Shown: positions 2,454 through 52,094 of the stretch, piece by piece | Numbering within the stretch: the first letter of the stretch is position 1 | How the letters are laid out: each line of letters opens with the position of its first letter | Assembly: GCA_963782915.1 (NCBI GenBank) | Contig: CAWALK010000015.1 | Span: 64,001 to 128,000, forward strand | Source of the DNA: an uncultured archaeon | GTDB taxonomy: Archaea > Thermoproteota > Bathyarchaeia > Bathyarchaeales > Bathycorpusculaceae | Length of the DNA stretch: 64,000 bases | Direction: 5' to 3' | The notes under the pieces: model-generated | Told to the model about the DNA's origin: nothing | Databases searched by the model: none | Seen by the model: the letters and a program-made list of their open reading frames with translations, nothing else | Made by a program: the position numbers and the translations under genes

Positions 2454-2632
2454 TTCTCACAGAATAATATCAAAGTTTCAAGCAATGATTTTGCCTTCTC
2501 CTTTTGCAGTCATTAAAATGCCTGTTTTTTGCCATCATCTATTCTATTGCATTAATCGTTTTGGTTTCACTTGTTATGACTCATAATGGTTATAACATTG
2601 TTGACCATAACAGGTGTTAGGGCTATCTGACT

Positions 2633-4478
2633 ATGGGAAGCGAGAAGATTGCATCTACAGTTGATCCTATACACGTTTTACATGTAGACGACGATCAGTC
2701 CCTACTTGAAGTATCAAAACAGATACTACTATCCATGAACAGTAACTTTGTCGTTGAATCCTCAACATGTGTAGAAGAAGCACTCGCTTTACTCGCAGCC
2801 AACGGCTATGATGTTATTGTATCCGATTATGAGATGCCCCAAAAAAACGGATTAGATTTCCTAAAAATACTAAAACAACAAAAAAGCAGCATACCCTTCA
2901 TTCTATTCACGGGAAAAGGCCGAGAAGAAGTAGCCATACAAGCCCTCAACTTAGGCGCAGACGGCTACTACAACAAACAGGGCTCCCCCGAAACCGTCTA
3001 CGGCGAACTAATCCATGGCATCGAAACCCTCCATGAGAAAAGACGAATCCAACATGCACTTGAAGAAACGGAAAAACGCTACAGCGCCCTCATGGAACAG
3101 GCAACAGATGCTATTTTTATCCATGATTCCAAAGGCAAAATCATCGATGTTAACCAGCGTGTCTGCAAAAGCCTTGGGTACTCCAAAGAAAAAGTTCTTT
3201 CAATGAATATAGGCGATATTGATAATAACGCAACTGAAACCGAAAAAGGGGTTATTTGGGATAAAGTTTTATCGGGTGAAACTTTCACTTTTGAGAGCAC
3301 CAACAAACGCAGGGACGGTAGCGTCGTTCCAGTCGAGGTATCGCTTGGACCCATAAAAATTGGCAAAGACCTCTTAGTCATGGGATTAGTGAGAGATATT
3401 ACCAATCGCAAGAACATTGAGAAGTCACTTAAAGAAAGCCAAAGACGATATCAAGATATTATAGAGAATACTGGCGAATTCATCTGGGAAATGGATTCTC
3501 AGGGTCGTTATACTTATTGTAGTCCTCAAATGGAGGAACTCTGGGGAATAAAACCTGAGCTTATGATTGGAAAAACTCCCTTTGATGTTATGCCTCCTGA
3601 GTATAGAGAGATGGCACTGCAAGGGTTCTTAAGCTTTGGGCAGTCACCTCAACGCTTTTAGGAATTTAGAATCAATCGCTTATGATAATCAAGGACAACC
3701 TATTACTATTGAAATAAACGGTCGCCCCTTTTTTGACGACCAAGGAGCCCTTCTTGGATTCCGCGGCGTTACACGCGATATCACCGAACGCAAGAAAAAC
3801 GAAGAAAAACAAAAACTCAACTGCACAAAAACGCAACAAGCTAACGAAAAATTACAAGTAGTCGGCGGCTTAACACGCCATGACATAACAAACAAACTCT
3901 CAAGCATAAAAATCCAAACATACTTAATTAAAAAGAAATTTGGCGATAACCCCGAATTAGTCAAAGCCATAGAGGGAATAGAATTAGCTGTGGAGCAATC
4001 CAACAAGCTTTTCGAGTTTAGCAGCCTCTATGAACGAATCGGCGTTGAAGAATTAACCCAAATAGATGTTGGGGACTGTTTCGATCAAGCAAAGGCTCTG
4101 ATGCCTGTTTTATCAGTGGAAATCATCAATAATTGCCGAGGGTTAGCTGTTTTGGCGGATTCTTTGCTGCGCCAAGTCTTCTATAACTTGATTGATAACT
4201 CGCTTAAACATGGAAGCAAAGTAACGCGAATTCAATTGGATTATCGGCAAAATGGCTCCGCTCTTTATCTGATTTATACTGATAACGGCGTAGGTGTTAC
4301 CCAAGGGGATAAGGATAAAATTTTCGAAAACGGATTTGGCCCAAACGGAGCCACCAATCATGGGCTTCAGCTAGTCAAGAAAATGATTGAGGCATATGGC
4401 TGGTCAATTAAAGAGGCAGGTACCCCTGGTTTGGGCGCTAGTTTTGAGATTGTAATTCGAAAAAGCCGTAGTAATTAA
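2633..4478 (+). CDS. REC-PAS-PAS-histidine kinase hybrid, frameshift near 3655
   Basis: VLHVDDD, SDYEMP and FTGKGREE receiver; two PAS domains; RHDITNKL H-box; NLIDNSLKH and DNGVG ATPase boxes. Confidence 0.88.
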
Positions 4479-5742: not shown

Positions 5743-5900
5743 TTAATCGTCCTTTTTGGGGCTTTGTTGATGTAGTGGTGATGTTGGATTAATTTAGCTT
5801 ATGTTGATTTTGGGGGTGAGGGGTTGGTTGGTTATGTTTTGATATGCTTGGGGTATGTAACAGGCTTTATATCGCTCTGTATTGTAGATACATATTCAAG

Positions 5901-5937
5901 ATATGTCCGAAGGAGGACATATTGTACATCTGTACAA
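5901..5937. promoter_or_regulatory. Two adjacent palindromes, candidate PadR operators
   Basis: ATATGTCC-N6-GGACATAT (5901-5922) and TTGTACA-N2-TGTACAA (5922-5937) between divergent padR genes. Confidence 0.45.
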
Positions 5938-5964
5938 CACAAATACACAACGAGGAAAAGAAAA

Positions 5965-6366
5965 ATGTTCAAAGCCAGCTCACAAAAAGAGGTCTCAACC
6001 AAACTAATGAAAGGCCTACTAGACATGATCATACTCCAATTCCTCAACGGCGAACCAATGCACGGCTACCAAATCATCACAAAAATCCGCAAAAACTTCG
6101 GCGTCTACTTCGGACCCAGCACCATCTACCCACTCCTAGGCAGCCTAGAAAAGAAAGGCTACGTAAACAGCACCTGGAACATGAAATCCGAACGCCCACG
6201 CAAAATCTACAGCCTAACCCAAGACGGACAAAGCATGCTAAACTTCACAGAAGAATCCCTAAGCCTCATCTGCAGAAAAATAACCATCGTCAACCCAGAA
6301 ACAGAACCAACAGTCGGCATCATCGCCCACAAAAGCACAAGCCACCTCACAATCTCAGTCCCCTAA
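5965..6366 (+). CDS. PadR family transcriptional regulator
   Basis: MHGYQII, PSTIYPLLGSLEKKGYV and RPRKIYSLTQDG; ATG 5965 follows a GAGG-like RBS. Confidence 0.9.
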   Translation: MFKASSQKEVSTKLMKGLLDMIILQFLNGEPMHGYQIITKIRKNFGVYFGPSTIYPLLGSLEKKGYVNSTWNMKSERPRKIYSLTQDGQSMLNFTEESLSLICRKITIVNPETEPTVGIIAHKSTSHLTISVP

Positions 6367-6614
6367 ATACTGGCAAGATTTCTTTGCCGCTTGCCAGAGC
6401 AAACTAATCACCTTACCCCGGTGGACCCAAAACCACCCTTCCAACATAATCCTGTTTTAAATACCCCAACACCCAATCACTATTAACGTAATATAAGAGG
6501 GGTAAATTAGCCATAAAATCAGCAAACAGCCTCGAAAACGACGACATAAACAGCCAGATAGTAGAGTTTTGTAGGCATGTTGCTGGTCAATGCAAAATCG
6601 CTGCCATCGCCCAA

Positions 6615-8213
6615 GTGGATGATTACTCACAGAAACCCGGCAACGACCGCGTAATCCAAGAGGTTATGCTGGTTATTCATGATTTTCAACCTCGTCTCAT
6701 GAGCTATTTAAAATCGGTTAAAAACAAAACAGTCTTTGTTTTCGCGGTGGATCAATGGGTTTTCGAGCGAGACATCGACCGCGGCTTGTTGGGTGAAGCC
6801 ATCGCGAGTAAACTTATCTTTCCCTACCATGCCCTGCAAGGCGAAGCATACCTGCATGAGCGGGAACTGGAGCTTAAGCAACGCTTAGTCTTGGAGTTGC
6901 TTGAGAACATAGTTGTCAACTTTCCAGAGCTTGCTAACCGCATTCAGATTTTGCCGCAGTATTTCATGTATGAAGTGTTTTCTAATCGCATCAGGGTTTT
7001 TCCGTTGCTCGCCTATGATGTAGCTGACTTAACCAGGGGGTTAATGCAGAATGAACCGCAGGCGCTCGAAGGCTACTTGATGGCGCTCAAACGGTTGGAA
7101 GCACAGGGAAAAATTACCCAACAAAACGGCTACGTCTATGTTACAAAAAAGTTTATCATGCAATGCCAAGACCCCAAACTCCGCATCATCAACCTCGCAA
7201 AAAACGCGCCCCGAACGCTGTTCACCTCAATCTTCGGAACCATCCCCCAACTGATGAGCATCGTTACACAGAACGCCGAAGCGTTCTTGCGAACCCAAAA
7301 AATCAATTGGTTACACCAATCCGACCAAACTAGCCGCTTTGTCGATTCCCAAAAATACGTGTTCTTCCAAACTGGGGAGGGGTTGGTTTCGTTATCCGAC
7401 AAAATCGACATCAAAGGCTACACGCAGCGGATGCTGCTCAAGGATGCAGATGTGGAAGTGGAAGTGGAGCCAATCGGCGGCATGTTAAACGACGTGTACT
7501 TAATCCGTGCCGGGGAGCGTAAAGTGTTGGCTAAGCGGTTTAAGGATTGGTCTGGGTTTAAGTGGTTCCCGTTGACGTTGTGGTCTTTTGGGGCACGTTC
7601 ATTTGCTGTTTCGGGGCAAGCACGGCTCGCCAAAGAATGCGCGATTAGTGAGGTTTTGCATAGTGAAGGCTTCAACGTGCCAAAAATCCTCCATGTCAGC
7701 AACGCCCAACGCATTGTATTTATGGAGTTTATCGAGGGCAAGAGTTTGGCTAAAATAATCAAAGACTACTCCACCACGACGGATGAGTCCGTGGATGCTG
7801 AAGTGTTGGGCACGGTTGGCCGTGTCGGGGAAACCCTCGCAAAAGCCCACGGACACAACGTTGCCCTAGGCGATACCAAACCCGACAACGTCCTAATCCA
7901 AGCCGACGGCACCATATTCCTCATCGACTTCGAACAAGCCCAGCAAGGCGGCGACAAAGCATGGGACATCGCTGTTTTCCTCTATTACTGCGGCCATTAC
8001 CTGCAGCCTTTTGACAGCAACACCAAAGCGGAATCGATTGCCATCGCATTCATCGAGGGGTATCTTCGGGGCGGCGGAAACATCGATGACGTGCGTAAGG
8101 CTGGGTTGCCTAAGTATACGCGGGTGTTTAGTATTTTTACGATGCCGGCGTTTGTAACTGCGATTTCTCATGTCTGCAAAAAAGCCGAAGCCACAAGGTT
8201 AGCGGTTGAGTAA
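6615..8213 (+). CDS. Protein with a C-terminal RIO/Bud32/Kdo-like kinase domain and a possibly degenerate N-terminal nucleotidyltransferase-like domain
   Basis: VLAKRF, VFMEFIEG, ALGDTKPDN and IDFE kinase motifs; frame stays open upstream to about 6492. Confidence 0.75.
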   Translation: MDDYSQKPGNDRVIQEVMLVIHDFQPRLMSYLKSVKNKTVFVFAVDQWVFERDIDRGLLGEAIASKLIFPYHALQGEAYLHERELELKQRLVLELLENIVVNFPELANRIQILPQYFMYEVFSNRIRVFPLLAYDVADLTRGLMQNEPQALEGYLMALKRLEAQGKITQQNGYVYVTKKFIMQCQDPKLRIINLAKNAPRTLFTSIFGTIPQLMSIVTQNAEAFLRTQKINWLHQSDQTSRFVDSQKYVFFQTGEGLVSLSDKIDIKGYTQRMLLKDADVEVEVEPIGGMLNDVYLIRAGERKVLAKRFKDWSGFKWFPLTLWSFGARSFAVSGQARLAKECAISEVLHSEGFNVPKILHVSNAQRIVFMEFIEGKSLAKIIKDYSTTTDESVDAEVLGTVGRVGETLAKAHGHNVALGDTKPDNVLIQADGTIFLIDFEQAQQGGDKAWDIAVFLYYCGHYLQPFDSNTKAESIAIAFIEGYLRGGGNIDDVRKAGLPKYTRVFSIFTMPAFVTAISHVCKKAEATRLAVE

Positions 8214-8254
8214 AAGTTATTTACCTAAAACCGGCTATAGTATTGTAGAGTTTT

Positions 8255-8537
8255 ATGACTGATTTTTATTACTACAAAGGGCTCTTACAGCGTCAAACTT
8301 TTAACGGAAGCCGAGGGCTACTGGATTGTTGAGGCACTGGAAGATTTTGATGATTACCTGGAAGGCGAACGAGTAAACGTTAAAGCCGGCGAGCAACGCA
8401 TCGTGCAGCCCAGTGAATTGCATAAAAAAAAGGTGCTTTCGCCGCCGATACCGGAGCATGTGTATGAGCGGCAATTGGAAAAGAAAGTTAAGCACATGGT
8501 TGAAGAATACGAACAAAAAACCAGCCCAAACCAGTAA
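8255..8537 (+). CDS. Small hypothetical protein (~93 aa), +1 frameshift near 8280; missed by the ORF track
   Basis: MTDFYYYK joins GSYSVKLLTEAEGYWIVEALEDFDD...TSPNQ* if one G of aaaggg is removed. Confidence 0.6.
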
Positions 8538-8604
8538 CGCCGACTTGTGGTTGCAGCCTATTAGCCACATACGTTAATGTGCCCTTGAACGGTTTGTTTT
8601 TAAG

Positions 8605-9033
8605 GTGAATTTTTTGTTAGGACAGAAATTATTTGAAGGCAAAGGCAAAGCCGGACCGAGTTTCTTAAAGAAAGTCAGTATGGAAGGAGTTAAGCAGATG
8701 TATGCTTGGACTGCGCAGGTAAAAGGCATGGGCCGAGCAGCAGGCACTGATTGCTTCCTCACTGTTACCGCAAAAGGCAATACGCCGCCAAAAGGGTTAG
8801 GCGTAGCAAAAGACATCGGCATCTTTAGGACCTCAACCGGCGAAATGGGTACAATCAAAGGTTATGACGTGGCTAAAATGATGGGCGCTAAACCGATGAG
8901 TGTGGGGTTGTGGACGTTTATGACTATGTCGGATAAGCTCATGTGGCTGAACGATGTGATTGCGATTGTTACTTTTGAGGGCGTTGATCCGATGTGGCAG
9001 GAATTCAACGTAGCAATCTATGAGTGGGCATAA
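8605..9033 (+). CDS. Hypothetical protein
   Basis: 142-aa ORF of protein-like composition followed by a T-rich tract. Confidence 0.7.
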   Translation: MNFLLGQKLFEGKGKAGPSFLKKVSMEGVKQMYAWTAQVKGMGRAAGTDCFLTVTAKGNTPPKGLGVAKDIGIFRTSTGEMGTIKGYDVAKMMGAKPMSVGLWTFMTMSDKLMWLNDVIAIVTFEGVDPMWQEFNVAIYEWA

Positions 9034-9143
9034 ACCACTTTTTCTTTAATCTGCAAGCCATACCTCTTCAATGTTCGTCAGTCAGAGCCTCAACCGTCTA
9101 GTGTAGAATAAAACTTCAAAAGCAAGCGACAGATTAACAAAGT

Positions 9144-9509
9144 GTGCACCATAAAAAAGCAGCTCTCTCCCTTGCTCTAAACGCGTTATGCTTAGCGCTT
9201 TGGGTAGGCATCACCATAGTTTCCCTGTCAATGAACACACCCATAGGCTACGTTATTAGCGCCGTATTTTTTGCGATTTCCTGCTATAGCGTCTACTATT
9301 TCTATCGGATATTGTGGCTCCATAACGGCGGACGTCCCCTCTCAGCGGAGAAAAAACAGAAAAGAGACCAATACCGAAAGCAAATGCGCAATTACCAGCG
9401 ATATAACCTCTACCACCGTTTATACCGCTTTGCTGATGCAACAGAGGATGAATATCAAGCCGAGAAAGCTAAAGAAAGATTAAAGAAGATACGCAGGTAT
9501 ACCATGTGA
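9144..9509 (+). CDS. Small membrane protein (two TM helices, charged tail)
   Basis: Hydrophobic N-terminal helices; tail has a homologous remnant at 26639-26742. Confidence 0.6.
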   Translation: MHHKKAALSLALNALCLALWVGITIVSLSMNTPIGYVISAVFFAISCYSVYYFYRILWLHNGGRPLSAEKKQKRDQYRKQMRNYQRYNLYHRLYRFADATEDEYQAEKAKERLKKIRRYTM

Positions 9510-9689
9510 TCGTACGCGGTTGCGGTGGCTCAGGCTTTTGCAGTTAGCTCAGGCACCGTATTCCGAGTAGTAAGCCTGTTAGTTAATTGTTTTAGGGGTG
9601 TAACTTTATGTTGGTTTTATTTGGGTTATAATTTCTTGAGAAGGTTTAAATCATTAATTATAATGCTGTTATGACAACAGGTTTTCATA

Positions 9690-11456
9690 ATGGCTTCAGT
9701 CCATCTTTCCTACACCAAAGAGCAACTGCAGGATAAGGTCGATTTCGATATTTCCAAAGTTCTCGACCTCCAAGCATTACAGGAAATGATGGATGAGTTC
9801 TTTAAGGTAACGAAAATAGGGTTTAGCCTAATAGACCTAAACGGAAACGTCTTGGTCGGAACAGGCTGGCAGGATATTTGTGTTGATTTTCACCGCAAAA
9901 ATCCCCAAACCTTGAAGAACTGTTTAGAAAGCGACCTTGAACTAACAAAGGGCGTAAAAGAGGGCGAGTACAGAGTATATAAGTGTAAAAACGGCTTAAT
10001 CGATACCGTCACGCCTCTTTTTATCGGCGGAATGCATGTCGCCAACATATTATCGGGGCAATTCCTCTTTAAAGGAGAAGGCGATGACATCGACAAATTC
10101 GCAGCCCAAGCCGAGAAATACGGTTTTGACAAGGAAGCGTATATTTGTGCATTTAAGACTGTTCCCCGCTGGGATAAGGGTCAAGTAGACGCCCTGCTGG
10201 TTTTCTACACAAAGTTAACTCATATGCTTTCTAAAAAGGGCCAAGCAAACCTGAGGTTATCTCAATTATTAGATGAGAAAGCGAAAGTGAAGAAAGAACT
10301 GGAAATGAGTCAGGCTGATTTAAAGCGTGCACAGGCAGTCGGGAAAATGGGTAATTGGCGGGTTTTAGTTGACGGCGGCTTATTCTGGTCCGATGAGACT
10401 TACCGAATTTTTGGCATTCCTAAAGAAACTAAACTGAGTTATGACATGTTTATTGAAGCGGTGTACCCTGAGGACCGTGAGTATGTTGATTGTGAATGGC
10501 AGGCTGCTCTGCGGGGGAAGCCGTATGATATTGAACATAGAATAGTGGCGAATGGCCGAATTGTTTGGGTCAGGGAGAAGGCAGAACTTGAATTTAAGGA
10601 TGGAAACTTGCTTGGCGGTTTTGGAACTGTACAGGATATAACAAAGCGAAAACAGGTTCAACTTAGGCTTCAAGAAAAGACCGCGGAATTGGAAAGTACC
10701 CAAAAGAAACTTGAAGAAAACGCTGTCTCCATTGAAGCGTACGCACATCAAATGGGGCATCTTGCCGACGAAAGATTAGAGAAACTAAAACAAGCAGAGC
10801 GTTTAGCAGTAATTGGGCAAACCGCAGGCATGGTTGGGCATGATATACGTAATCCCCTGCAGGCTATGATTAGTGACGTTTACTTGCTAAAAGATGAACT
10901 GTCATTGATGCCTCATTGTAAGACAAAAGAAGGCGTCGTTGAAAGTTTGGACAGTATAGAAGCAAATATCGGTTATATCAACAAAATCGTTGCTGACTTG
11001 CAAGATTACGCTCGGCCCCTAAAACCCCAATACGTTGATATCAATTTGTATGAGTTGGTCACAAACCTTTTCCGCAATATTATTTTGCCCACCAATATTG
11101 ACTGCTCAATAGATATCGCCCCCTCCTTTGAGTTAAAGTCCGATGACACGCTTGTAAAAAGAATCTTGACCAACATAATTATCAATGCTATTCAAGCAAT
11201 GCCAAACGGCGGAAAATTAACCATAAAAGGTTGTTTAACCGATGAAGCAGTATTAGTTGTTGTTAAAGACAGTGGGGTGGGAATTCCTGAACATGTTAAA
11301 CCAAAACTGTTTACCCCTATGCTAACAACAAAATCCAAAGGACAAGGTTTAGGTTTAGCTGTAGTCAAACGTTTAGTTGAAGCATTAAACGGCGCTATTA
11401 GCTTTGAAAGCCAAGAGGGTAAAGGAACCGAATTCACCATACAGCTACGCCGCTGA
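9690..11456 (+). CDS. PocR-PAS histidine kinase
   Basis: GWQDICVDFHR and YKCKNGLID PocR signature; PAS; GHDIRNPL; GQGLGL. Confidence 0.9.
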   Translation: MASVHLSYTKEQLQDKVDFDISKVLDLQALQEMMDEFFKVTKIGFSLIDLNGNVLVGTGWQDICVDFHRKNPQTLKNCLESDLELTKGVKEGEYRVYKCKNGLIDTVTPLFIGGMHVANILSGQFLFKGEGDDIDKFAAQAEKYGFDKEAYICAFKTVPRWDKGQVDALLVFYTKLTHMLSKKGQANLRLSQLLDEKAKVKKELEMSQADLKRAQAVGKMGNWRVLVDGGLFWSDETYRIFGIPKETKLSYDMFIEAVYPEDREYVDCEWQAALRGKPYDIEHRIVANGRIVWVREKAELEFKDGNLLGGFGTVQDITKRKQVQLRLQEKTAELESTQKKLEENAVSIEAYAHQMGHLADERLEKLKQAERLAVIGQTAGMVGHDIRNPLQAMISDVYLLKDELSLMPHCKTKEGVVESLDSIEANIGYINKIVADLQDYARPLKPQYVDINLYELVTNLFRNIILPTNIDCSIDIAPSFELKSDDTLVKRILTNIIINAIQAMPNGGKLTIKGCLTDEAVLVVVKDSGVGIPEHVKPKLFTPMLTTKSKGQGLGLAVVKRLVEALNGAISFESQEGKGTEFTIQLRR

Positions 11457-11475
11457 TTACTCAGAAGACTGTTCG

Positions 11476-11529
11476 TATGGTATAATGAGCCAAACCGCAA
11501 ACGGCTACGGTATGGGACGCTGCCGCTAA
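11476..11529 (+). pseudogene. 3' remnant of a paralogue of the 21725-22102 secreted protein
   Basis: Encodes YGIMSQTANGYGMGRCR* versus WGMMSQTANGYGMGRCR*; differences mostly synonymous. Confidence 0.8.
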
Positions 11530-11672
11530 ACAACAGCCCTTTTTCCTTTTTTAATCAAGCGAACTCAAAAAATACCATTTAAATCTAAACCTCAAAATCC
11601 AAATACAGTATCTATTTTTTTTAGCGCCCTTTTAGTTGGTTTTCTACCTAAGGCTGGAAAATGATATTTTGG

Positions 11673-13197
11673 CTAAATATAATACTTGAATTTCGGGTTT
11701 ACCTTTTTAATTGTTGGATTAGAAACAAGAATCTCGCCTACTGCATTAGAGAATCCTATTGTTACTGGCGTTGAATCGCCGTATTTGCATTCGTTGAAGT
11801 TAAGTTTTGTTAGCCCTAAAATGTCAGTTGCCACTTGGTCGAGGTCGGAATCACCATATTGCAGGTCAATTCGTAGCGGTACAGGAATTTCCCATCCATC
11901 ATAAGTACCTAAGAAGGGTTTGAATCCAGTTGTCCATAGGTAACCTCTTTTATCACTAATCTTAAGAAATGTGCCCCGTAATACTGGCCATCTTCCTTCT
12001 CTATATAAACGGATCTGATCGGGTTCTTGCCTTATTTTGATGCAAACAACTTTTTTAGAAGGACATGCTGATCGAAAGCCTTGATATTCCTCAAAATTAA
12101 TTCCTGCTTTATAATGAAGAAAAACCTCATTCAATGGTTTCCCCTCAAGTTCTTGATAAGTCGTTAATACTTCGGTAAGTAAATCTTTGGCAGCTTGTTT
12201 CGATAAATGGAATTCACCGTCCTTTGGAGAAAACCAGGGCCCCATGTCTCCTCTTATTACGACACCGTCCCCGCTATCGAGAAACATCTGCGCAGCGCAA
12301 CAAGCATATTTATTGCCGAATGCTGGGTCAGTCCTATGGAAAACAACACCGACATAACACACACCATTTCTCGCTGTACTCAGACGCCAAGGCTTTCCAC
12401 CCGCCTTGTAGAACAACGTTGTGCAAATATTCCATGCTCTGTCTGACAAAGGGGTCTTGCCTATTTTGGCGATCAAGGGATCATCATCATTAGCCAGAGT
12501 CGATTCTAATACAATTTGTATTGGTGCTTCGATTTTCTCTTTTAAGGCTCTTGCTTTCAATTGGCGCCTAAAATCTACCGAATACTTATACATAGAAAGG
12601 TCCAAGGATGCGAGAAGTTCTGTTTGGCCAATCGCTCGGTTCTTTCGGTCACTCGAAGAAATTCTTTCGCCTACTCCGTCTTTTATGTAGCTTTTTGGTC
12701 GACAATTTTCATAGATAATATCAGGTACAACACAAACTATAGTATCAATTCTATCGTCGGTGTTCATTAGATGCCGTATTCCTTCAAGGTATTGGTTAAC
12801 TACCTCGTATGCTCGTTTATTAGGGTCTAAATCTGTAGAATCTGACACTAATTTTTCAGCATCAACTTGAAACTTTTGAGTTGGTTTACTCGGTAGGTGA
12901 GAATAAAATGTCGCTTGGAAACCAGGAAATGGCGGCCATAATTTGGGGCTGTCTATTCCTTTTTGGGAAATAATAACATTTTGAATTTTTTCAAAAAATC
13001 CTTCGGCCATTTCTATACCGTGAGGTGTCCCGACTAGACCGAATGAAATGTTTTTCGGGTGCCCATTTGTATCAGTATCATAGGGGCCAAAAATGGTTAA
13101 ACCTACTTTAGGATCTATTACCTTCTGCCCATATCTAAATTTCTAGATAGGGCTCGCCAAGAAAATTTAAGTTATATCGAATCGGGTTCTGTGCCAT
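11673..13197 (-). CDS. ago: Short prokaryotic Argonaute (MID-PIWI, SPARTA type), ~507 aa, +1 frameshift near 13140
   Basis: N-terminal EPYLEFRYGQKVIDPKVGLTIFGPYD restored by removing one A; FYKAGGKPWRL, CCAAQMFLDSGDG, GLTKLNFN, PVTIGF and terminal FKYYI match short pAgos. Confidence 0.92.
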
Positions 13198-14541
13198 CGC
13201 TTTCCGCCTCAGTCGGTTCATCAGTCAATATTATTTCTTCGTTTTCAGTGCACTCGGGGACCGTTAATTTTTTTTCGTCAATACCAAAATTGCTATCAAA
13301 GGTCATTGGATTCATCGGTATCTTAAAATTACCTGAGTCACTTTGAGCGATTATTACCTCTTCTTTTCCATCACTTAACCACTGTGAAAGTGCCAATATT
13401 CTAGATAGCCATTGGTAATTCCACCAAGTCTTACACAAAGCTTTCCTGTGTGAATTTGCACGTCTTGGCTCGATAGCGTTCCCTTCTAAATCAGTCCAGT
13501 AAACGCTAATCCTTAATCTTACAACTGGTTCCCCTAACATATTAAGGAAAAATCTAAAATCAGGCGATAAGTGGTATCTCGCATACTCTGTAATTTCCAC
13601 ACCTTGTTGAAACGATTTGAACTTCTTACTGCCAACTACTAGCACATGCACTTTTTTGTTATCAAACCTAGTTAAAAACAACTTATCGTTAGGCACTAAA
13701 CTTTTTGGGAAATATATAGGACCATCGTTATCCCGCTTTAATCCCTTCCTTTTACAGAATTGATAGAAGCATTCCCCTAAAAGTTGCGATAGCGTATTCA
13801 TCATTGGTTGATTGTAATCGCCAATTATTCTTTGTACCTCAAACTCTTGGTTCATCCTTAATCCGTTATTGCCAGTTGTTTGAGGCTCGCCAAAGGCCCA
13901 AATAAATTCATCATTTATTTTTAGAAACGCCCAATTTCGATCTATATTTTCCAGGCTGATCTCTGGTGTAATTTTATATTTCCTTAAGTATTTAGGCAAC
14001 TTCTAGAACGGGAATTATGTTTGACCAAATTTTTTCCTTTCGGGTTTCAGGTTGCTCATCAGATTTTAGTAAAGTGCCTATGTTTTGATGAGCACTATCT
14101 AGCTCTCTTGGCGCTTTTATTTCGTTCAATTTATTCAAAAGAGCACAAAAACCCCCAAACCAACTTCTGTTAAATGAAATATAGGATAAATCTGACAATG
14201 AAAAATCAAGTTCTGAGGGTTTTAGCCCATCGAGGTTAATTGGAATTAGAAAGTCTGGGCTTTTCTTGCTCTTTCCAACATTTAATGCCTAGTGTGCGCT
14301 CTTTTCTTGGATTCTCCTTGTTGATAGAATTGTGCGATAAAATAGCAATTAATCTAAATGTTTTATTTTGAATGGCTTCTGTTATATCGTGCGGATAAGA
14401 TTCACCGCCTAACAATTTCAGGCGATCGTACCATACCTTAAATCCTTCGGATGCCAGCTTTAGTGCAAGCCAATCAGCGAAACAACCATCCTCTATAGCA
14501 TAACTAATAAAAAGATGCTCTGGAGGATTTGCGGTCGCCAT
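13172..14541 (-). CDS. TIR-APAZ effector, ~455 aa, frameshifts near 14285 and 14000
   Basis: TIR: LFISYA, FADWLALKL, KVWYD and KE with catalytic Glu; APAZ: VVGSKK, YHLSP and KALCKTWWNYQWLSRILA; stop overlaps the pAgo start by 26 bp. Confidence 0.88.
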
Positions 14542-14571
14542 GTGAGATCATGGTAAGTAATGCTAATTTGC

Positions 14572-14580
14572 TTATATTAA
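14572..14580 (-). promoter_or_regulatory. Candidate archaeal TATA box for the TIR-APAZ/pAgo operon
   Basis: TTAATATAA on the minus strand, 31-39 nt upstream of ATG 14541. Confidence 0.4.
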
Positions 14581-14893
14581 CTAACGCCTGATGACAAAAA
14601 CACAATAATTTAGTTACTAACATATGCGCTACCAGATTCAATTATGTTAGTTTTGTTGTGTTTTTTGTTTGTTGGGATCTTTATAGGTGGCGGGTGGCTG
14701 CTGGGTTGAGCGGTTTAGTTTTTGTTTTGGAGGGTGTTGTGGGTTTGTTTGTTGTTTTGGTTTTATGGGCTACTATGTTGTGCCTTCTGTGGTACAAGAC
14801 GGCTTATCTGTTGGCGGCTGCTTTTGGCTGGGGTGACGGGCTAAGGAATTGAATGGGCCATGCTAGTGCCCGAATTGCATTTTGCTATTCATT

Positions 14894-14960
14894 GTTTGCA
14901 AAGTTATTCACTAATTCAGTCTATAAATAAGGGAGGGGGTAGGTCCTCTGAGGTAGGTAG
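14894..14960 (-). repeat. Intergenic repeat family, copy 1
   Basis: Reverse complement matches 18812-18838 at 26/27 nt and resembles 18721-18754. Confidence 0.75.
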
Positions 14961-14992
14961 GTCCTGTCTTTTTACCTAACCGAAGTTTTGGG

Positions 14993-15565
14993 CTAATAGT
15001 TTTCTGTCCAAACTTCAAAGTATGCTTGCGGATGGTTGCATGTTGGGCAACTGTCGGGTGCGTTGGGTCCTTCGAGGACCATGCCGCAGTTTCTGCATCT
15101 CCACTTGACTGGTGCATCTTTCTTGAACACTTTACCGGCCTGAACGTTTTCTAATAGTTTGTTGTATCGGCGTTCATGGTAAACTTCTACGCCTGCAACC
15201 ATGGTGAAGGTTTTTGCAACATCCATAAAACCCTCTCTTTTGCGGTTTCAGCAAAGTTCGGGTAAAGTGTGCCCCACTCGAGTTTTTCGCCTTCCGCGGC
15301 ACCCTTCAAATTAGTCTGCTGTTGAGGCAATGATGCCTGCTGGGTACGAAGCGGTGAATTCTACCATGCCGCCTTTGAGGTGCTTAAAGAAGAATTCGGC
15401 ATGTTCTTTCTCGTTGGCTGCTGTTTCCTCGAAGATTGCGCCGATTTGTTCATAACCTTCTTTTTTGGCTACGCTGGCAAAGAAGGTATATCGGTTTCGT
15501 GCTTGGGATTCACCTGCGAACGCTGCAAGCAGGTTCTTTTCGGTTTGGCTTCCACTAAAATTCAT
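14993..15565 (-). CDS. rbr: Rubrerythrin (~190 aa), two compensating frameshifts near 15312 and 15238
   Basis: AFAGESQARNRY, NEKEHA, EVYHERRY and the CRNCG...CPTCNHP rubredoxin domain. Confidence 0.93.
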
Positions 15566-15987
15566 ACTATTGGACTCCTTACCATTGATTTGAATAAACA
15601 AAAATAAAAGCATATCCAAAACCCCAAAACCATGTTAAAGGCTTTTATTTTCCACTTTCTATGATGTGTTTGCCGAATGATGAGAAGGCATTAAGTTGAC
15701 ATAATTGATTGGATGAAAATTCAGAGTTACTCAGACGGCAAAGGGTGAGTAACCTTATACGGTGTGGTAACCGTGTAGGGTTATTCACCTGACTATCCAA
15801 TCAAAAACAGTAAACCCCGATTATTCTTCGTTTGCACAAAGCGCTATCCCCCAACCGAAAAACAAAACACCGCTAACCAGCCAGCCCACTTCACCCAACA
15901 ACGCCTCCAACATTAACATGCCAGCGATAGTAATTTTTAAAAGGACTACACACGTATTGATTAACTCTGTTTAGAGGAAGAGAAAGG

Positions 15988-17616
15988 TTGGAAACAGTAA
16001 CCGGCAAAAAAATAGTGCTCACAGCATCAGCCACTGAAATGAGCGATTTCCTAAATAACCCATTCATAGCGTTCGCGGGAGGCTTCGGAAAAGGCCCATT
16101 CCCACTCTCATACGTAAGAAAAACACTCTACCCCGGCTGCGGCAAAAAACCGGACGGACAAGCAGCATACGCACCCTACGGACTGCGCAAAGTAGAAGCC
16201 ATACTTCTGCAAGGCGGCTTCTCAGCAGACGACATCGCAGTAGCCAACCCAGAAGACCTCGACTTATTCATCGGACCAAACACCAAAGTCGTCGGAATCT
16301 CCTCCATGGACCCCACCGGCATGGGATACGTCAGCAAAACCTACAGCAGCATCGTTGGCGGCGGCGAACCCATGAACCGCATAGAATTCCGAAAACTCAT
16401 AGAGCACCCCGCCATCAAAAAATATAAACCAAAAATCATCGTCGGCGGATACGGCTCTTGGCAACTTGAACGCCAACACGTCTCACAAAGCTACGGCATA
16501 GACTGCGTACTTATGGGCGGCAGACCGGGACCAATCATTGAACTCTTCAAAAAAGCCGTCAACGGCGAAGCGATTCCACGCATAGCCAAAGCAGACGAAT
16601 CACTGGATAACTGGAACTACAACCAAGAAATGCCCCTTACAACAAACGTGGCAATTCACGGCGCAGTAGAAATCAGCAAGGGCTGCGGTCGAAACTGCCA
16701 ATTCTGCACACCCACCATGCAGCACAAAATCGATGTGCCATTGGAAAGAATCATGAACGAAGTAGCCTTAAGTACTGCTCAGGGCAGCGATCACATTACC
16801 TTAATCACCGAAGACCTCTTCTTGTACGGCGCAAAAGATGCCCGATTCATTCCTAACCGAGAAGCAGTCGTTAACCTTTGCAAAAGCGTCGCAGATTACC
16901 CCGGCGTTAAAAGCATACAAGCCGCACACATGTCCTTGGCGCCAGTTTACCATGACCCCCAAATGATTCAACAACTCGCAGAAATTTTAATCGAAAAATC
17001 CTGGTACAGCTTCGGCAAAAAACCCATAATCACCGCCGAAACAGGCATCGAAACCGGCAGCCCACGCCTCATGAAAAAATATATGGCCGGCAAAATGTTA
17101 CCCTTCAAGCCGGAACAGTGGCAAGATGTGGTCACCAACGCTTTTGGTATCCTAAACGATAATGACTGGTACCCATTGGCAACCTTGATTATCGGTTTGC
17201 CGGATGAGAAAGAAGAAGACATGCTCCAAACCTTAGAGTTAATGGATAAACTCAAAGGTTACAACGCGTTTTATGTGCCGCTCTTCTTTGTGCCACTCGA
17301 AAACTGCGTACTCATGAACAAGAAAGGCGCAGAAATGGATTCCCTCTCAAAAGCACGCTGGGACTTCTTCATCAAATGCTGGGAATACAACATCAAAATC
17401 TGGAAACCCACATTCCTAGAAAACCGCTTACCGAACCCGGTGGCGTACAAGGCATTCGACAAAGTCGTTATCCCCTACATCGGCAAAATCTTAGGCGCAT
17501 ACTACAGCTTAACACGCGGCGATAGCAGCCAACAATTCAAGCAGGCTGTTTACCAATTAAGTATGCCGATGCCTGATAATGGTCGAAAAGTAAAAGGAAA
17601 AGAAAGTAAGGTTTAG
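15988..17616 (+). CDS. Radical SAM protein with a B12-binding-like N-terminal region
   Basis: KGCGRNCQFC CxxxCxxC motif; APYGLRKVEA; GIETGS; LIIGLPDE. Confidence 0.88.
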   Translation: METVTGKKIVLTASATEMSDFLNNPFIAFAGGFGKGPFPLSYVRKTLYPGCGKKPDGQAAYAPYGLRKVEAILLQGGFSADDIAVANPEDLDLFIGPNTKVVGISSMDPTGMGYVSKTYSSIVGGGEPMNRIEFRKLIEHPAIKKYKPKIIVGGYGSWQLERQHVSQSYGIDCVLMGGRPGPIIELFKKAVNGEAIPRIAKADESLDNWNYNQEMPLTTNVAIHGAVEISKGCGRNCQFCTPTMQHKIDVPLERIMNEVALSTAQGSDHITLITEDLFLYGAKDARFIPNREAVVNLCKSVADYPGVKSIQAAHMSLAPVYHDPQMIQQLAEILIEKSWYSFGKKPIITAETGIETGSPRLMKKYMAGKMLPFKPEQWQDVVTNAFGILNDNDWYPLATLIIGLPDEKEEDMLQTLELMDKLKGYNAFYVPLFFVPLENCVLMNKKGAEMDSLSKARWDFFIKCWEYNIKIWKPTFLENRLPNPVAYKAFDKVVIPYIGKILGAYYSLTRGDSSQQFKQAVYQLSMPMPDNGRKVKGKESKV

Positions 17617-18494
17617 GCAGTTTCTTGTTCTGCCATTTCTTCTTCTAATTGTTCTTCTTGTTGTTCTAAAACCATGTTTTCTGCCGCTGCTTCCGGTGTT
17701 GCTTGGGGTGTTCGGTGGTGGTTTATGATTTTTCTTGCGTGGGTTATGTAGCCTGTGTGCCCTGTCATCATGGTGTTGGGTCTGGTTTTGCCGCGTTCAA
17801 CTTGCATGCTGCGCATTAGGCATTCGATGGTTTCTATGAATACGAAGCCTTGGTCGCGTAGTGCTTCGGTTGTGCGCACGACTTGGTCGATGGTTGGGCT
17901 AAAGGAGACGAGTATGCCTGAGGGTTTGAGTGCTTCGTAAGCGTGTGGCACTACTAGCCACGGAACCGCAAGGTCCAAAATCACTGCGTCTAAGTCGCGT
18001 TCGGCGATGCCCATGGTTACGTCGCCGCTTTTCATCTCAACGTTGTCGATGAGTTTGGAGCGTGCCAAGTTTTTGGCGGCGTTTTTCTGGAATTCCGGGC
18101 GTAACTCGTAAGTGTAAACTTTGCCTGTTGGCCCAACATAATGCGCTAACGCTGAGGTTAATGCGCCTGTGCCTGTGCCTGATTCGAATACGCGGCTTCC
18201 GGGGCCGATACCGCTAAACATAACGATTAAAGCGGCGTCTTTGGGGTAAACGATTTGTGTGTTGCGTCCCGACTTCATCATGTAATCGGTTAACGACGGT
18301 TTGAGTGTGGCGAATGTTACGCCTAAGCTGCTTTTGATTGGTTCACCGTATTCTTTGCCGATTAAATCATCCAGTTTCAGGAAGCCTTTGTGGGTATGGA
18401 AGCTTTGTCCCGACTGCACCTTAATCATGTATGTTCTGCGGGCGTCCAGGTAAATTAGCACCATGTCCCCGTCAGCGATTAACTCGTTAGTCAA
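17613..18494 (-). CDS. trmI: tRNA (adenine-N1)-methyltransferase TrmI
   Basis: TQIVYPKD, ESGTGTGALT, LDLAVPW, FSPTIDQV and GHTGYI. Confidence 0.93.
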   Translation of the reverse strand: MTNELIADGDMVLIYLDARRTYMIKVQSGQSFHTHKGFLKLDDLIGKEYGEPIKSSLGVTFATLKPSLTDYMMKSGRNTQIVYPKDAALIVMFSGIGPGSRVFESGTGTGALTSALAHYVGPTGKVYTYELRPEFQKNAAKNLARSKLIDNVEMKSGDVTMGIAERDLDAVILDLAVPWLVVPHAYEALKPSGILVSFSPTIDQVVRTTEALRDQGFVFIETIECLMRSMQVERGKTRPNTMMTGHTGYITHARKIINHHRTPQATPEAAAENMVLEQQEEQLEEEMAEQETA

Positions 18495-18629
18495 ATAGTG
18501 TTCCTCGAAAAGTGAAAATGATGCGGTGCCATTTAAGCTTTGAAGCCCTTACGACGCATTTTTCTATATTGCGTTCGGTCGGAGCGGCGTTGTTTTTTCT
18601 TTGTTAATTGTTGCTGTGGGCTCCTTTTA

Positions 18630-18838
18630 TTTCAACAACAACCAACAGGCTTGGATGTGCAAATGTTTGGCGTCTGCGTTTGAGTTGGTTTGGTTCAGCT
18701 TTGCCGTATACGTTTAGGGACCCACCTCAGAATTACCTACCCCTCCCTTATTTAAAGAATAAATAGACAACTTCAACTGCTCTGCCAGCTACCTCCCCTC
18801 CCTCTATATACACTGAATTAGTGAATTACTTTGCAAAC
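18630..18838 (+). repeat. Intergenic repeat family, copy 2
   Basis: caacaacaaccaacaggcttgg (as at ~42620), cccctcccttattta, cccctccctctatata and actgaattagtgaattactttgcaaac blocks. Confidence 0.7.
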
Positions 18839-18994
18839 GCCCGCATTTTCTTCAAATTAAGATTTTTAAATATAACTGATTATTTAGCGTGCATAAACCC
18901 CGACAGTGCTCGATTGAGTGCGGTTTGTCGTCAGAGCCTCCTTTCCATTCCATTATATAAACGAAAAAATCAAATATCGAATTAGAGGAGCATT

Positions 18995-21502
18995 ATGAAA
19001 AAGAAAAATATAGAGTTAATTTTATTTACGGTATTTCTAATCGCAACAATCGCTATCCCACTTTCCATACCCGAAGCTAACTCTGCACCTATACATCATA
19101 AAGCCACTCACGCATACATCGGAGCCACTCCAAACCCAATCGGTGTAGGACAAGAAACACTCATTCACCTCGGCATCACTGACGAATTAGAACTCGTCCA
19201 GTATGGCTGGAAAGGACTAACAGTAACAGTCACAAAACCCGACAACACAACCTCAACACTTGGTCCATTTAATACTGACTCCACAGGCGGAACAGGCACA
19301 GTCTACGTTCCGGAAACAGTCGGCACCTACTATTTCCAAACAAACTTCCCCGCACAATGGTTCAACTGGTCTAGGAACACAAACGGCGGCGCAGACATCT
19401 ACTACGAAGCAAGCCAAAGTGAAAAACTCGCATTAGAAGTTGACCAAACACCAAGACAATACTATCCATCACAACCCTTACCCTCAGAATGGTGGACACG
19501 ACCAATCGACGACCAACTCAGAGACTGGTACACAATAGCTGGTAACTGGCTAGCACCAACACGCAACGAAGGTCCATTCATTCCAGAAAATGCAAATGCA
19601 GCCGAAACTGCACACATTCTATGGGCAAAACCACAAACCTTAGGCGGTATAGTTGGCGGACAATACGGGCTTGAAGAATTCGAAAACGGTGACGCATACG
19701 AAGGACTATGGGGATACGGTTCTCCAGTAATCATCGGTGGAATAGTATACTATAACAACGACAAAGACGCTGCCCCAGTGAAAACAGTCTCAGCAGTAGA
19801 CCAACGCACCGGCGAAGAACTATGGAACAGAGCACTAATCGGACCAGACAACGTCAGCAGATCACTACAATTCGGTCAAATACTAACTTGGAACTCATAC
19901 AACTACCAAGGAGCATTCTCGTACCTATGGACAACCAGTGGAAGCACATGGAACGCATTCGACCCCTTCACAGGCGAATGGGAATATAGCATGACTAATG
20001 TTCCCTCCGGCACACAACTAAGAGGACCAAACGGCGAAATACTCATCTACACTTTAGACAGCGCAAATGGTTGGATGACCCTTTGGAACTCAACCAGAAT
20101 TGTGAGCACCGATGGTAGTTTCCTACGCAACGGACAAGGTACAACTTTCAAGGCATTATGGAGTTCCCCACGCAATGGAGGCTATGAATGGAACGTAACC
20201 GCACCTAAAGGCCTACCCGGTGCAGTCAACTTTGCATTCTTCGACGACATGGTAGTCGGCGCAAACATGGAAGCACGCACAGCAGCAGCAAACATCCTAG
20301 GCAAAACCGGCAGTCCAGTAGCACTCTGGGCAGTCAACACCAAAACAGCACAAGCCGGACAACTAATCTACAACAAAACATGGCAACCACCCGCAGGCAA
20401 CCTATCATTGGTATTCGAAAGAGCAAGCGTAGCAGACAACGTATTCACAATATGGAGCAAAGAACTACGTGGACGCTTCGGCTTCAACATGGACACAGGC
20501 GAACAAATCTGGGGACCAACCGAACCAGAATACTACCTACAAACATTTGGCCTACAAAGCAACATTGCATACGGTAAACTTTACTCGACAGGATACGGTG
20601 GAGAAGTACATGCATACGACCTAAAAACAGGTAATGTCGTTTGGAACTACACAGTCACAGAACCCTACGGTGGTTCAGAAGTTCTATGGAGTAACAACTG
20701 GCCAATGGCACTGATGTTCATCACAGACGGCAAAGTCTACTTAGCACAAGCAGAACACTCAGCTAACCAACCATTACCAAGAGACGGACCATTCATGGCA
20801 CTCGACGCAGAAAATGGCACAGTTGTTTTCAGAATTGATGGTGCATTCCGTCAACCACGTTGGGCAGGGCAAGCAGCAATCGCAGATGGCATAATTACTC
20901 TCTTTAACACATACGACAACCAAATCTACTCAATCGGCAAAGGACCAAGCCAAACAACCATCTCAGCCTCACCGAAAACAACAGTATTTGGCGACAGCAT
21001 CCTAATCGAGGGTACAGTCACAGACATTGCAGCAGGTACAAAAGACGACCGAGTAACAGCAAGATTCCCCAACGGTGTAGCAGCAGTCTCAGACGATAGC
21101 ATGAACGACTGGATGAAATACGTCTACATGCAATTCCAAAGACCCACAAACGCTACCGGTGTACCAGTCACTCTAATAGTGATAGATGCAAACGGAAACT
21201 ACGGAACAATAGGCACCACCACAAGCGATTCTAACGGAGCATTTAGCTACCTATGGACACCTGAAATACCTGGCAAGCACACAGTTATCGCAAGTTTCGC
21301 AGGCACAAACTCATACTATGGCTCAACAGCCCAAACCGCCGTGGGCATAACTGAAGTAACAACGCAACCACAAACAACATCTTCAGCTGATACCTCAACA
21401 TCATTTGTTGAAGCATACTTTGTCCCCGCAGTAATTGCGATAATTGTAGCAATAGCTATTGTGGGCATTGTTTTGCTGATGGCAATAAAAAAGAAAGCAT
21501 AA
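18995..21502 (+). CDS. Secreted, membrane-anchored PQQ-like beta-propeller protein
   Basis: Signal peptide; AVDQRTGEELW and AYDLKTGNVVW blades; Ig-like domain; C-terminal TM plus KKKA. Confidence 0.85.
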   Translation: MKKKNIELILFTVFLIATIAIPLSIPEANSAPIHHKATHAYIGATPNPIGVGQETLIHLGITDELELVQYGWKGLTVTVTKPDNTTSTLGPFNTDSTGGTGTVYVPETVGTYYFQTNFPAQWFNWSRNTNGGADIYYEASQSEKLALEVDQTPRQYYPSQPLPSEWWTRPIDDQLRDWYTIAGNWLAPTRNEGPFIPENANAAETAHILWAKPQTLGGIVGGQYGLEEFENGDAYEGLWGYGSPVIIGGIVYYNNDKDAAPVKTVSAVDQRTGEELWNRALIGPDNVSRSLQFGQILTWNSYNYQGAFSYLWTTSGSTWNAFDPFTGEWEYSMTNVPSGTQLRGPNGEILIYTLDSANGWMTLWNSTRIVSTDGSFLRNGQGTTFKALWSSPRNGGYEWNVTAPKGLPGAVNFAFFDDMVVGANMEARTAAANILGKTGSPVALWAVNTKTAQAGQLIYNKTWQPPAGNLSLVFERASVADNVFTIWSKELRGRFGFNMDTGEQIWGPTEPEYYLQTFGLQSNIAYGKLYSTGYGGEVHAYDLKTGNVVWNYTVTEPYGGSEVLWSNNWPMALMFITDGKVYLAQAEHSANQPLPRDGPFMALDAENGTVVFRIDGAFRQPRWAGQAAIADGIITLFNTYDNQIYSIGKGPSQTTISASPKTTVFGDSILIEGTVTDIAAGTKDDRVTARFPNGVAAVSDDSMNDWMKYVYMQFQRPTNATGVPVTLIVIDANGNYGTIGTTTSDSNGAFSYLWTPEIPGKHTVIASFAGTNSYYGSTAQTAVGITEVTTQPQTTSSADTSTSFVEAYFVPAVIAIIVAIAIVGIVLLMAIKKKA

Positions 21503-47812: not shown

Positions 47813-47897
47813 AAACGTTTCTGGTAAAATACCGCTCGATTGACCTGTAGATGGCGAAGTATTCGGCGACAAAAAGTCACAATTCTTATAATCTAAT

Positions 47898-51888: not shown

Positions 51889-52094
51889 ACCAAGTCACTG
51901 ACATCAATAGTCCTCGGCTTAGATATTACTCTCCCCAAGGAACACCCTGTTCCCGAAGATGGAACACCCAAGATTTAGGCGGGTACCAAAAAATTGGTGA
52001 TTATTAGCAATTAATGGGGATTAAGGACGCAGAATGAAGGGGAAGCTTTTTGAGTGCCCTTGTTCCATATTGCACGCTAAAGGACGTTAATATT

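Follow-up and report, generated by a model that had tools for sequence, protein, structure and literature searches.

A predicted SPARTA operon with interrupted reading frames in a Bathyarchaeia genome assembly

A TIR-APAZ gene and a short Argonaute gene

In the metagenome-assembled genome (MAG) of an uncultured soil archaeon of the class Bathyarchaeia, a 64,000-nucleotide stretch of DNA (positions 64,001 to 128,000 of contig CAWALK010000015.1 in assembly GCA_963782915.1, hereafter the window) carries a pair of adjacent genes that resembles the SPARTA systems of suicide defence, in which a short prokaryotic Argonaute (pAgo) is paired with a TIR-APAZ protein. Three-frame translation revealed four open pieces on the minus strand between 14541 and 11676 (Table 1). 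A TIR-APAZ gene is spread over three frames from 14541 to 13175 and has 455 codons after base removal, while a MID-PIWI short pAgo gene is spread over two frames from 13197 to 11676 and has 507 codons once repaired. Each frame transition amounts to one extra base, and deleting one base per break gives the 455 and 507 codons. TIR-APAZ lies directly upstream of pAgo on the same strand, and its stop codon (13172-13174) falls within the pAgo gene, with an overlap of 26 nt. The original prediction, made from the sequence, had described three single-base insertions and a TIR-APAZ protein of about 455 amino acids overlapping an Argonaute of about 507; the sizes were reproduced by translation, which put the overlap at 26 nt. 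The 30 nt immediately 5' of the TIR-APAZ ATG are similar to the contig end of a relative from peat, approximately 91% identical, that is described below.

Table 1. Features of the locus, with positions counted along the window
Feature	Position	Strand	Remarks
AT-rich segment of approximately 6 kb	9034..14982		Absent at the same site in four congeners (blastn)
TATA-like box TTAATATAA	14572..14580	-	Putative, read from the sequence; 31-39 nt upstream of the TIR-APAZ ATG
TIR open piece	14541..14239	-	101 aa
Second open piece of TIR-APAZ	14288..13995	-	98 aa
APAZ open piece	14002..13175	-	276 aa
pAgo open piece	13142..11676	-	489 aa; an ATG at 13197 with 19 codons precedes it in the adjacent frame
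TIR-APAZ piece 1	14290..14541	-	TIR domain, residues 1-84, including Glu81 at the catalytic position (14299-14301)
Frameshift 1	14288..14289	-	One extra G, bracketed in CTAG[G]
TIR-APAZ piece 2	14001..14287	-	End of TIR domain and linker
Frameshift 2	14000..14000	-	One extra base after CTAGAA
TIR-APAZ piece 3	13172..13999	-	APAZ domain and acidic C-terminal tail, including stop codon
pAgo start	13143..13197	-	ATG at 13197 and first ~19 codons
Frameshift 3	13140..13142	-	AAA, against AA in the relative
Short pAgo (MID-PIWI), main frame	11673..13142	-	489 codons and stop codon

The pAgo piece matched the PADLOC model pAgo_I (PDLC02378) with an E-value of 2.3e-161 over positions 13-493 of 493. 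Among solved SPARTA complexes, the pAgo chains 8ifk_B, 8fex_B and 8qlo_B, each of 507 residues, aligned with it from residue 14 to residue 507 (E ~1e-95), and its top matches in the PDB were SPARTA chains throughout. PDLC02378 was the best of the PADLOC models for this protein (540 bits), whereas the pAgos of congeners that have REase-type partners best fit PDLC02376 and reach only 262-347 bits against PDLC02378. In the alignment with a solved chain, Arg192 stands opposite His207, a residue which we take to be part of the 5'-phosphate pocket, and Lys196 stands opposite Lys211; both Arg192 and Lys196 are invariant in 31 close homologues.

The partner protein was assigned in a similar manner. 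Its first piece matched Pfam TIR_2 (1.6e-15), and the three pieces matched PADLOC models of TIR-APAZ proteins (Aga_TIR-PNTD1-PNTD2) at the consecutive positions 5-88, 83-175 and 239/254-435; the first two of these ranges were found with PDLC02421, and piece 3 matched PDLC02403 at positions 254-435 (4.1e-24). The TIR piece aligned to residues 5-87 of the TIR-APAZ chain 8fex_A of MapSPARTA. Counted along this alignment, Glu81 of the motif PRKERTL stands opposite Glu77, in keeping with the earlier claim that the TIR domain retains the glutamate at the catalytic position. With the substitution E77A, both Crt and Map SPARTA are reported to lose their NADase activity altogether (Koopal 2022, PMC9097488). 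Aspartate and glutamate make up 37% of the last 35 residues of the TIR-APAZ protein. An acidic tail of the APAZ protein, in the range of 21-45% for clade S2, has been described for S2 systems, and an autoinhibitory role of this tail is described for BabSPARTA and MapSPARTA (PMC10899771). The tail encoded here fits such an autoinhibitory tail in composition.

The PADLOC model, the PDB matches and the TIR-APAZ partners present in all 8 tested neighbours from its clade group the predicted pAgo with clade S2A and not with S1 or S2B. Clade S2A is SPARTA by the definition of Koopal 2022 (PMC9097488). Judged by homology, the locus is thus a real SPARTA operon, consisting of a short pAgo of clade S2A and a TIR-APAZ gene, in a Bathyarchaeia chromosome. 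PADLOC, Pfam and the solved structures agree with the original prediction of a SPARTA-type system. That prediction had also suggested that the corrected proteins be examined for clustering with SPARTA, and the fragments match PADLOC models of SPARTA proteins, while a pAgo tree places the window beside TIR-APAZ-bearing loci. Its concern that fragmentation could hide the locus from automated annotation did not hold, because all four fragments match PADLOC models and the locus is therefore not hidden from hidden Markov models (HMMs).

A mechanism may be proposed, every step of which is drawn from homology to characterised bacterial SPARTA. The MID-PIWI Argonaute and the TIR-APAZ protein would form a heterodimer, which would load small guide RNAs and, so guided, bind complementary single-stranded DNA from an invading element that is highly transcribed. 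The complex would then assemble into a tetramer, in which the TIR domains (with Glu81 in the present protein) would hydrolyse NAD(P)+, causing the cell to stop growing or die.

Origin of the interrupted frames

The three breaks were placed by two criteria, namely the bases omitted in the contigs of the peat relative and collinearity with intact homologues. Logan contigs from four peat-metagenome runs of one study hold a copy of the locus, approximately 91% identical, that spans 11677-14541. Compared with the window, these contigs omit one base each at 14289, 14000 and 13140. The other differences are an in-frame difference of three bases at 14254 and a compensating pair at 14096 and 14103. Two intact proteins called on contigs of the peat relative, both reached by cluster look-ups, are available for comparison. 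The first, P0121, is a pAgo of 515 aa that is identical to the main pAgo frame at 464 of 489 residues (95%) and to the N-terminal fragment at 25 of 27. The second, P0128, is a TIR-APAZ protein of 457 aa whose residues 4-87, 88-183 and 182-457 correspond to pieces 1, 2 and 3, with identities of 84% (over residues 4-96), 75% (88-183) and 89% (182-457), respectively.

The frame junctions are equally continuous in these and other homologues. Junction 1 (KERTL/ALNVGK) is collinear with P0128 and with the TIR-APAZ proteins of two other Bathyarchaeia MAGs (L010 and L011), and junction 2 (IIPVLE/LPKYLRKY) is collinear with P0128 and L010. Junction 3 (EPYLE/FRYGQK) is contiguous in P0121, and its phenylalanine is invariant in 31 homologues. 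In addition, a tblastn comparison with the intact TIR-APAZ protein of L010 matched the three pieces to its residues 20-105, 97-198 and 187-461, so that no residue is missing between them.

The most likely source of the three single-base insertions is consensus error in a long-read assembly, with a probability of about 0.7; if so, the organism probably carries both genes intact. The host genome is a MAG of 25 contigs and 3.28 Mb in which other genes are broken as well. Its sole Hsp70/DnaK gene (499-2398, plus strand) is split over two frames by an extra G near 1419, and the same gene is a single frame of 637-641 aa in four of four congeners. The gene adjoining the operon, encoding rubrerythrin (14996-15634, minus strand), has an extra base near 15308 and lacks an A in an A-run near 15240, which together put approximately 27 codons, with two stops, out of frame; this gene, too, is a single frame in four of four congeners. 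Three further cases are suggested by Pfam continuity. These are a response-regulator/PAS kinase (2621-4475, plus strand) and a PAS kinase (47892-49765, plus strand), each with one putative break, and a beta-helix/NosD-like protein (50033-51894, minus strand) with two putative breaks. By frame arithmetic, one-base insertions account for 8 of the 10 shifts in the window.

The substitution pattern was also considered. The pAgo of the window and P0121 differ at 25 of 489 residues (5%) against roughly 8-9% of bases, and 31 of the first 40 substitutions listed between the window and the relative are at third codon positions. The low residue change relative to base change, together with the third-position bias, indicates purifying selection over nearly all of the divergence. 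The operon contains no in-frame stops and has lost no segments.

Several observations weigh against an intact, working operon garbled in assembly. A run search yielded no run of the window's own strain (0 rows with half the words or more); its best matches were the four peat-metagenome runs, each with 0.05 of the sampled words, and these hold the ~91% relative and not the window strain. The sequencing technology is deduced only from contig sizes and the error pattern. Three breaks occur in 2.9 kb, where roughly 0.3 would be expected given the approximately seven documented in the other 61 kb of the window. The extra bases are also not scattered. All three of them and the compensating pair, i.e. 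five single-base indels, lie within 3 nt of a CTAG (sites at 13143, 14003, 14099 and 14289), and CTAG-adjacent positions make up only ~3% of the locus; this clustering is not predicted by a simple random-error model. Finally, no measured activity of an archaeal SPARTA was found in the literature.

The most serious alternative is that the insertions are real and have very recently turned the operon into a pseudogene, for example through counter-selection of a costly abortive-infection NADase in a genome that also carries a provirus. Such an inactivation would account for a density of breaks above the documented background of the window and for their non-random position beside CTAG, unlike the other breaks of the window, and it would suit a locus that looks foreign and is dispensable, being absent in congeners. 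It would, however, require three independent frameshifts to have arisen with no nonsense codon, deletion or relaxed substitution pattern. Protein identity of the pAgo to the relative is 95%, as against ~91% in DNA, with the excess of third-position changes noted above, and DnaK and rubrerythrin, two genes that are unbroken in every congener examined, are also interrupted in this assembly. Inactivation is given about one chance in four, and assembly error remains the preferred explanation. Broken genes in this long-read MAG, including the defence operon, DnaK and rubrerythrin, should not be taken as pseudogenes without a read check. The main additions of this analysis are the probable attribution of the breaks to assembly error, with its consequences for the annotation of this MAG, and the adjacency of the extra bases to CTAG.

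The possibility that CTAG is a general site of artefacts was examined and rejected, since CTAG accounts for 38 of 1290 frame-junction stops genome-wide (ratio 1.08); the frame-order bias is common to all NTAG contexts across the genome. Neither the break in DnaK nor those in rubrerythrin fall at CTAG. Several palindromes are depleted in the host genome, with observed to expected ratios of 0.33 for CTAG, 0.30 for GATC, 0.43 for GGCC and 0.49 for CCGG, a pattern that suggests pressure from restriction-modification systems; CTAG (8 sites) and GATC (9 sites) are dense in the SPARTA locus. One might accordingly imagine that the extra bases are genuine and that a CTAG-directed mutational process switched off a newly acquired, toxic defence operon. 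This is considered improbable, although it would, if true, constitute a previously undescribed silencing of incoming genes in archaea.

Still less probable is that the assembled sequence is correct and is expressed by readthrough in vivo, through programmed +1 frameshifting or four-base decoding at CUA-G. In each of the three breaks, a skip of one base shortly after an in-frame CUA-G does restore the frame. However, an in-frame CUA-G at 13034-13037 of the pAgo frame must be read normally, and a skip directly after CUA-G gives lysine at a position that is glutamate in P0121 and in most of the 31 homologues aligned. In addition, no stimulatory element was seen, and the ~91% relative and the homologues in L010 and L011 simply lack the bases.

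A SPARTA pAgo is also split in a Thermoplasmata MAG with long contigs (L038). There, a one-base shift falls within ~3340-3385 in a homopolymer run of C/G, and not at CTAG.

Host and acquisition of the operon

The archaeal host proposed by the original prediction was borne out by two markers. All 80 relatives listed for the AspRS encoded on the window's contig are archaeal (68-91% identity), and the titles of nearly all name Bathyarchaeota or Bathyarchaeia, among them Candidatus Bathycorpusculum. For the 16S gene on another contig of the genome (C20), the archaeal model gives 1479 bits and the bacterial model 1092 bits.

The locus was said to be richer in AT than its surroundings, and it has a GC content of 0.389 compared with a genome mean of 0.451 in windows of the same size, a value within the lowest 2.5% of 6436 windows. 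By tetranucleotide distance, the locus ranks among the top 1.8% of 1500 windows sampled. The AT-rich segment in which it lies comprises a small open reading frame (ORF), a PocR-PAS histidine kinase (9690-11456, plus strand), the SPARTA operon and a repeat (14660-14975). In blastn comparisons of four congeners (G079, G067, G001 and G084) with the window, homology jumps from 8516 or 9033 to ~14983-14994, and 142-815 nt stand in place of the segment. Because these four congeners have the kinase (window 6555-8189), the small ORF and then rubrerythrin within 142-815 nt, the part of the window at ~9034-14982 is extra in the present genome. Four other congeners (G007, G014, G073 and G003) could not be used for this comparison, as synteny past rubrerythrin is not conserved in them. 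When window 6500-19000 was searched as DNA against 60 congeners, none of the matches listed fell inside the SPARTA locus, with 186 weaker matches beyond those listed, and an HMM search of 36 congeners gave no SPARTA-type match. Horizontal acquisition, as originally proposed, is thus favoured by the empty site, the HMM search and the atypical composition.

The operon was probably acquired from an archaeon of the same class as proximate source, within a family that is mostly bacterial. Its proximate donor need not be bacterial, since the nearest relatives are other Bathyarchaeia operons with 63-70% pAgo identity. Traces of a mobile element were sought. The window contains no tRNA, its Pfam matches include no integrase domain, and there is no Rfam match in 9000-17000. 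Convincing flanking repeats of the segment were not found, apart from weak direct repeats of 15 nt. No neighbouring defence genes were found among 14 flanking ORFs, which gave generic kinase and methyltransferase matches only.

That bacterial DNA was joined to an archaeal contig by a chimeric assembly or binning is very unlikely: the atypical GC content and tetranucleotide usage and the mostly bacterial family would fit it, but the segment is interior to a contig of 326,791 bases with both flanks syntenic with congeners, the AspRS on the same contig is Bathyarchaeial, and both the pAgo and the TIR-APAZ protein have their nearest relatives in other Bathyarchaeia MAGs.

Two minor features of the region may be recorded. 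At least 8 other contigs of the genome carry matches, at 80-86%, to stretches of up to 286 nt of the intergenic repeat at 14660-14975, and a core of ~50 nt (window ~14914-14975) makes up most of the 85 blastn matches of the repeat in the genome; many short peat-metagenome contigs pile up at this repeat, where neither a tRNA nor an Rfam match is present. Elsewhere in the window, at 5782-6404, two open frames of ~190 codons overlap, both on the plus strand, where composition is strongly biased between the strands; only one of them has a PadR domain.

Archaeal relatives and comparison with known systems

Of 8000 candidates scored in a protein search with the pAgo, 4217 proved to be relatives at E <= 1e-20, and the most similar of these is 73% identical. 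In species-representative genomes, an alignment-based search found 531 stretches that encode pAgo relatives, the best 80 of which were kept; this search replaced a single-protein locus search that had returned one partial match. By record title, 11 of the best 80 loci are archaeal. They comprise three of Bathyarchaeia, two of Micrarchaeota/Anstonellaceae, three of Thermoplasmata or Thermoplasmatales, and one each of Methanosarcinales, Methanomassiliicoccus and ANME-1. A full-length TIR-APAZ gene lies upstream of pAgo in all seven archaeal loci tested, as well as in one bacterial control.

A quick IQ-TREE tree of 76 rows was calculated, from which loci without one uninterrupted ORF (L021, L035, L038, L086 and L087) were dropped. 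The window forms a clade with L010 and L011 (SH-aLRT 100) beside rows of Chloroflexota and Acidobacteriota, and a second clade of seven archaeal rows is nearby in the tree. Bacteria account for 65 of the 74 rows that have a domain label. As the root of the tree was not inferred, the direction of transfer is suggested by these sequences rather than shown.

The distribution of SPARTA has been described in bacterial phyla (Koopal 2022, PMC9097488, legend of Figure S1A), and short pAgos are described as present in both domains and spread by horizontal transfer (Ryazansky 2018, PMC6299218). A 2026 survey reports pAgos, including TIR-type sequences, in Bathyarchaeia MAGs but does not use the name SPARTA (PMC13477220). 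No paper characterising an archaeal SPARTA was found in the literature searched, although the supplementary tables of Koopal 2022 and Ryazansky 2018 may list archaeal TIR-APAZ entries. The original statement that characterised SPARTAs are bacterial therefore stands with the literature found. The rarity in archaea that it implied was overstated, because complete SPARTA operons are already public in MAGs of several archaeal lineages. SPARTA is not unusual for archaea, and intact archaeal copies are available. Together with its intact relatives, the window locus indicates a SPARTA family established in Bathyarchaeia and at least four other archaeal lineages, and the intact relatives are the best candidates for comparing guide loading and NAD depletion between archaea and bacteria.

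The bacterial MapSPARTA, CrtSPARTA and BabSPARTA (PDB 8fex, 8ifk and 8qlo, among others) have the same gene order, with TIR-APAZ upstream of a MID-PIWI pAgo of 507 residues, and share with the window a pAgo alignable over its full length, the TIR glutamate at the E77 position and the acidic TIR-APAZ tail. The C-terminal end of the window pAgo (YYI) is likewise that of the aligned solved SPARTA chain. The window locus differs from them in its archaeal host, in the frames broken in this assembly and in a function that is predicted. The relationship is distant, with well under half of the TIR residues identical in the alignment to 8fex_A, and Arg192 stands in the window protein where the solved chain has His207.

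The Bathyarchaeia operons in L010, L011 and L021 are closer, with pAgos 63-70% identical to that of the window, and the peat relative is closer still. These operons and the peat relative resemble the window in the gene overlap and in the sequences at the frame junctions, and L010 and L011 have TIR-APAZ directly upstream of pAgo. Unlike the window, L010, L011 and L021, as well as P0121 and P0128, are intact; they lie in other genomic contexts, and none is in the 60 congeners sampled.

Other short pAgo systems occur in the same genus. The pAgo_I model (E <= 1e-20) matched 6 of 61 genomes, namely the host genome, 3 of 36 congeners and, elsewhere in the order, 2 of 24 genomes. In the three congeners (L004 in G019, L005 in G014 and L006 in G030), a short pAgo likewise has an upstream APAZ partner, but this protein best fits REase-APAZ models, including Aga_REase_Archaea; the effector of these SPARDA-like systems is a nuclease-type domain and not TIR. 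SiAgo of Sulfolobus islandicus is also an archaeal short pAgo and is described as triggering cell death through partner proteins (PMC11788926). These partners are Aga1 and Aga2 rather than TIR-APAZ, a difference taken from the published description.

Two incomplete loci were also observed. In another Bathyarchaeota MAG (L009, 4001-4384), the partial match returned by the single-protein search is to the C-terminal end of the pAgo, over 129 residues with 50% identity; it is not spanned by a long ORF and is possibly a remnant. In a genome of the same order but another family (L007 in G037, 63-2160), a protein of 474 aa with a TIR-like N-terminus and an APAZ domain is encoded upstream of a short pAgo, which the end of the contig truncates.

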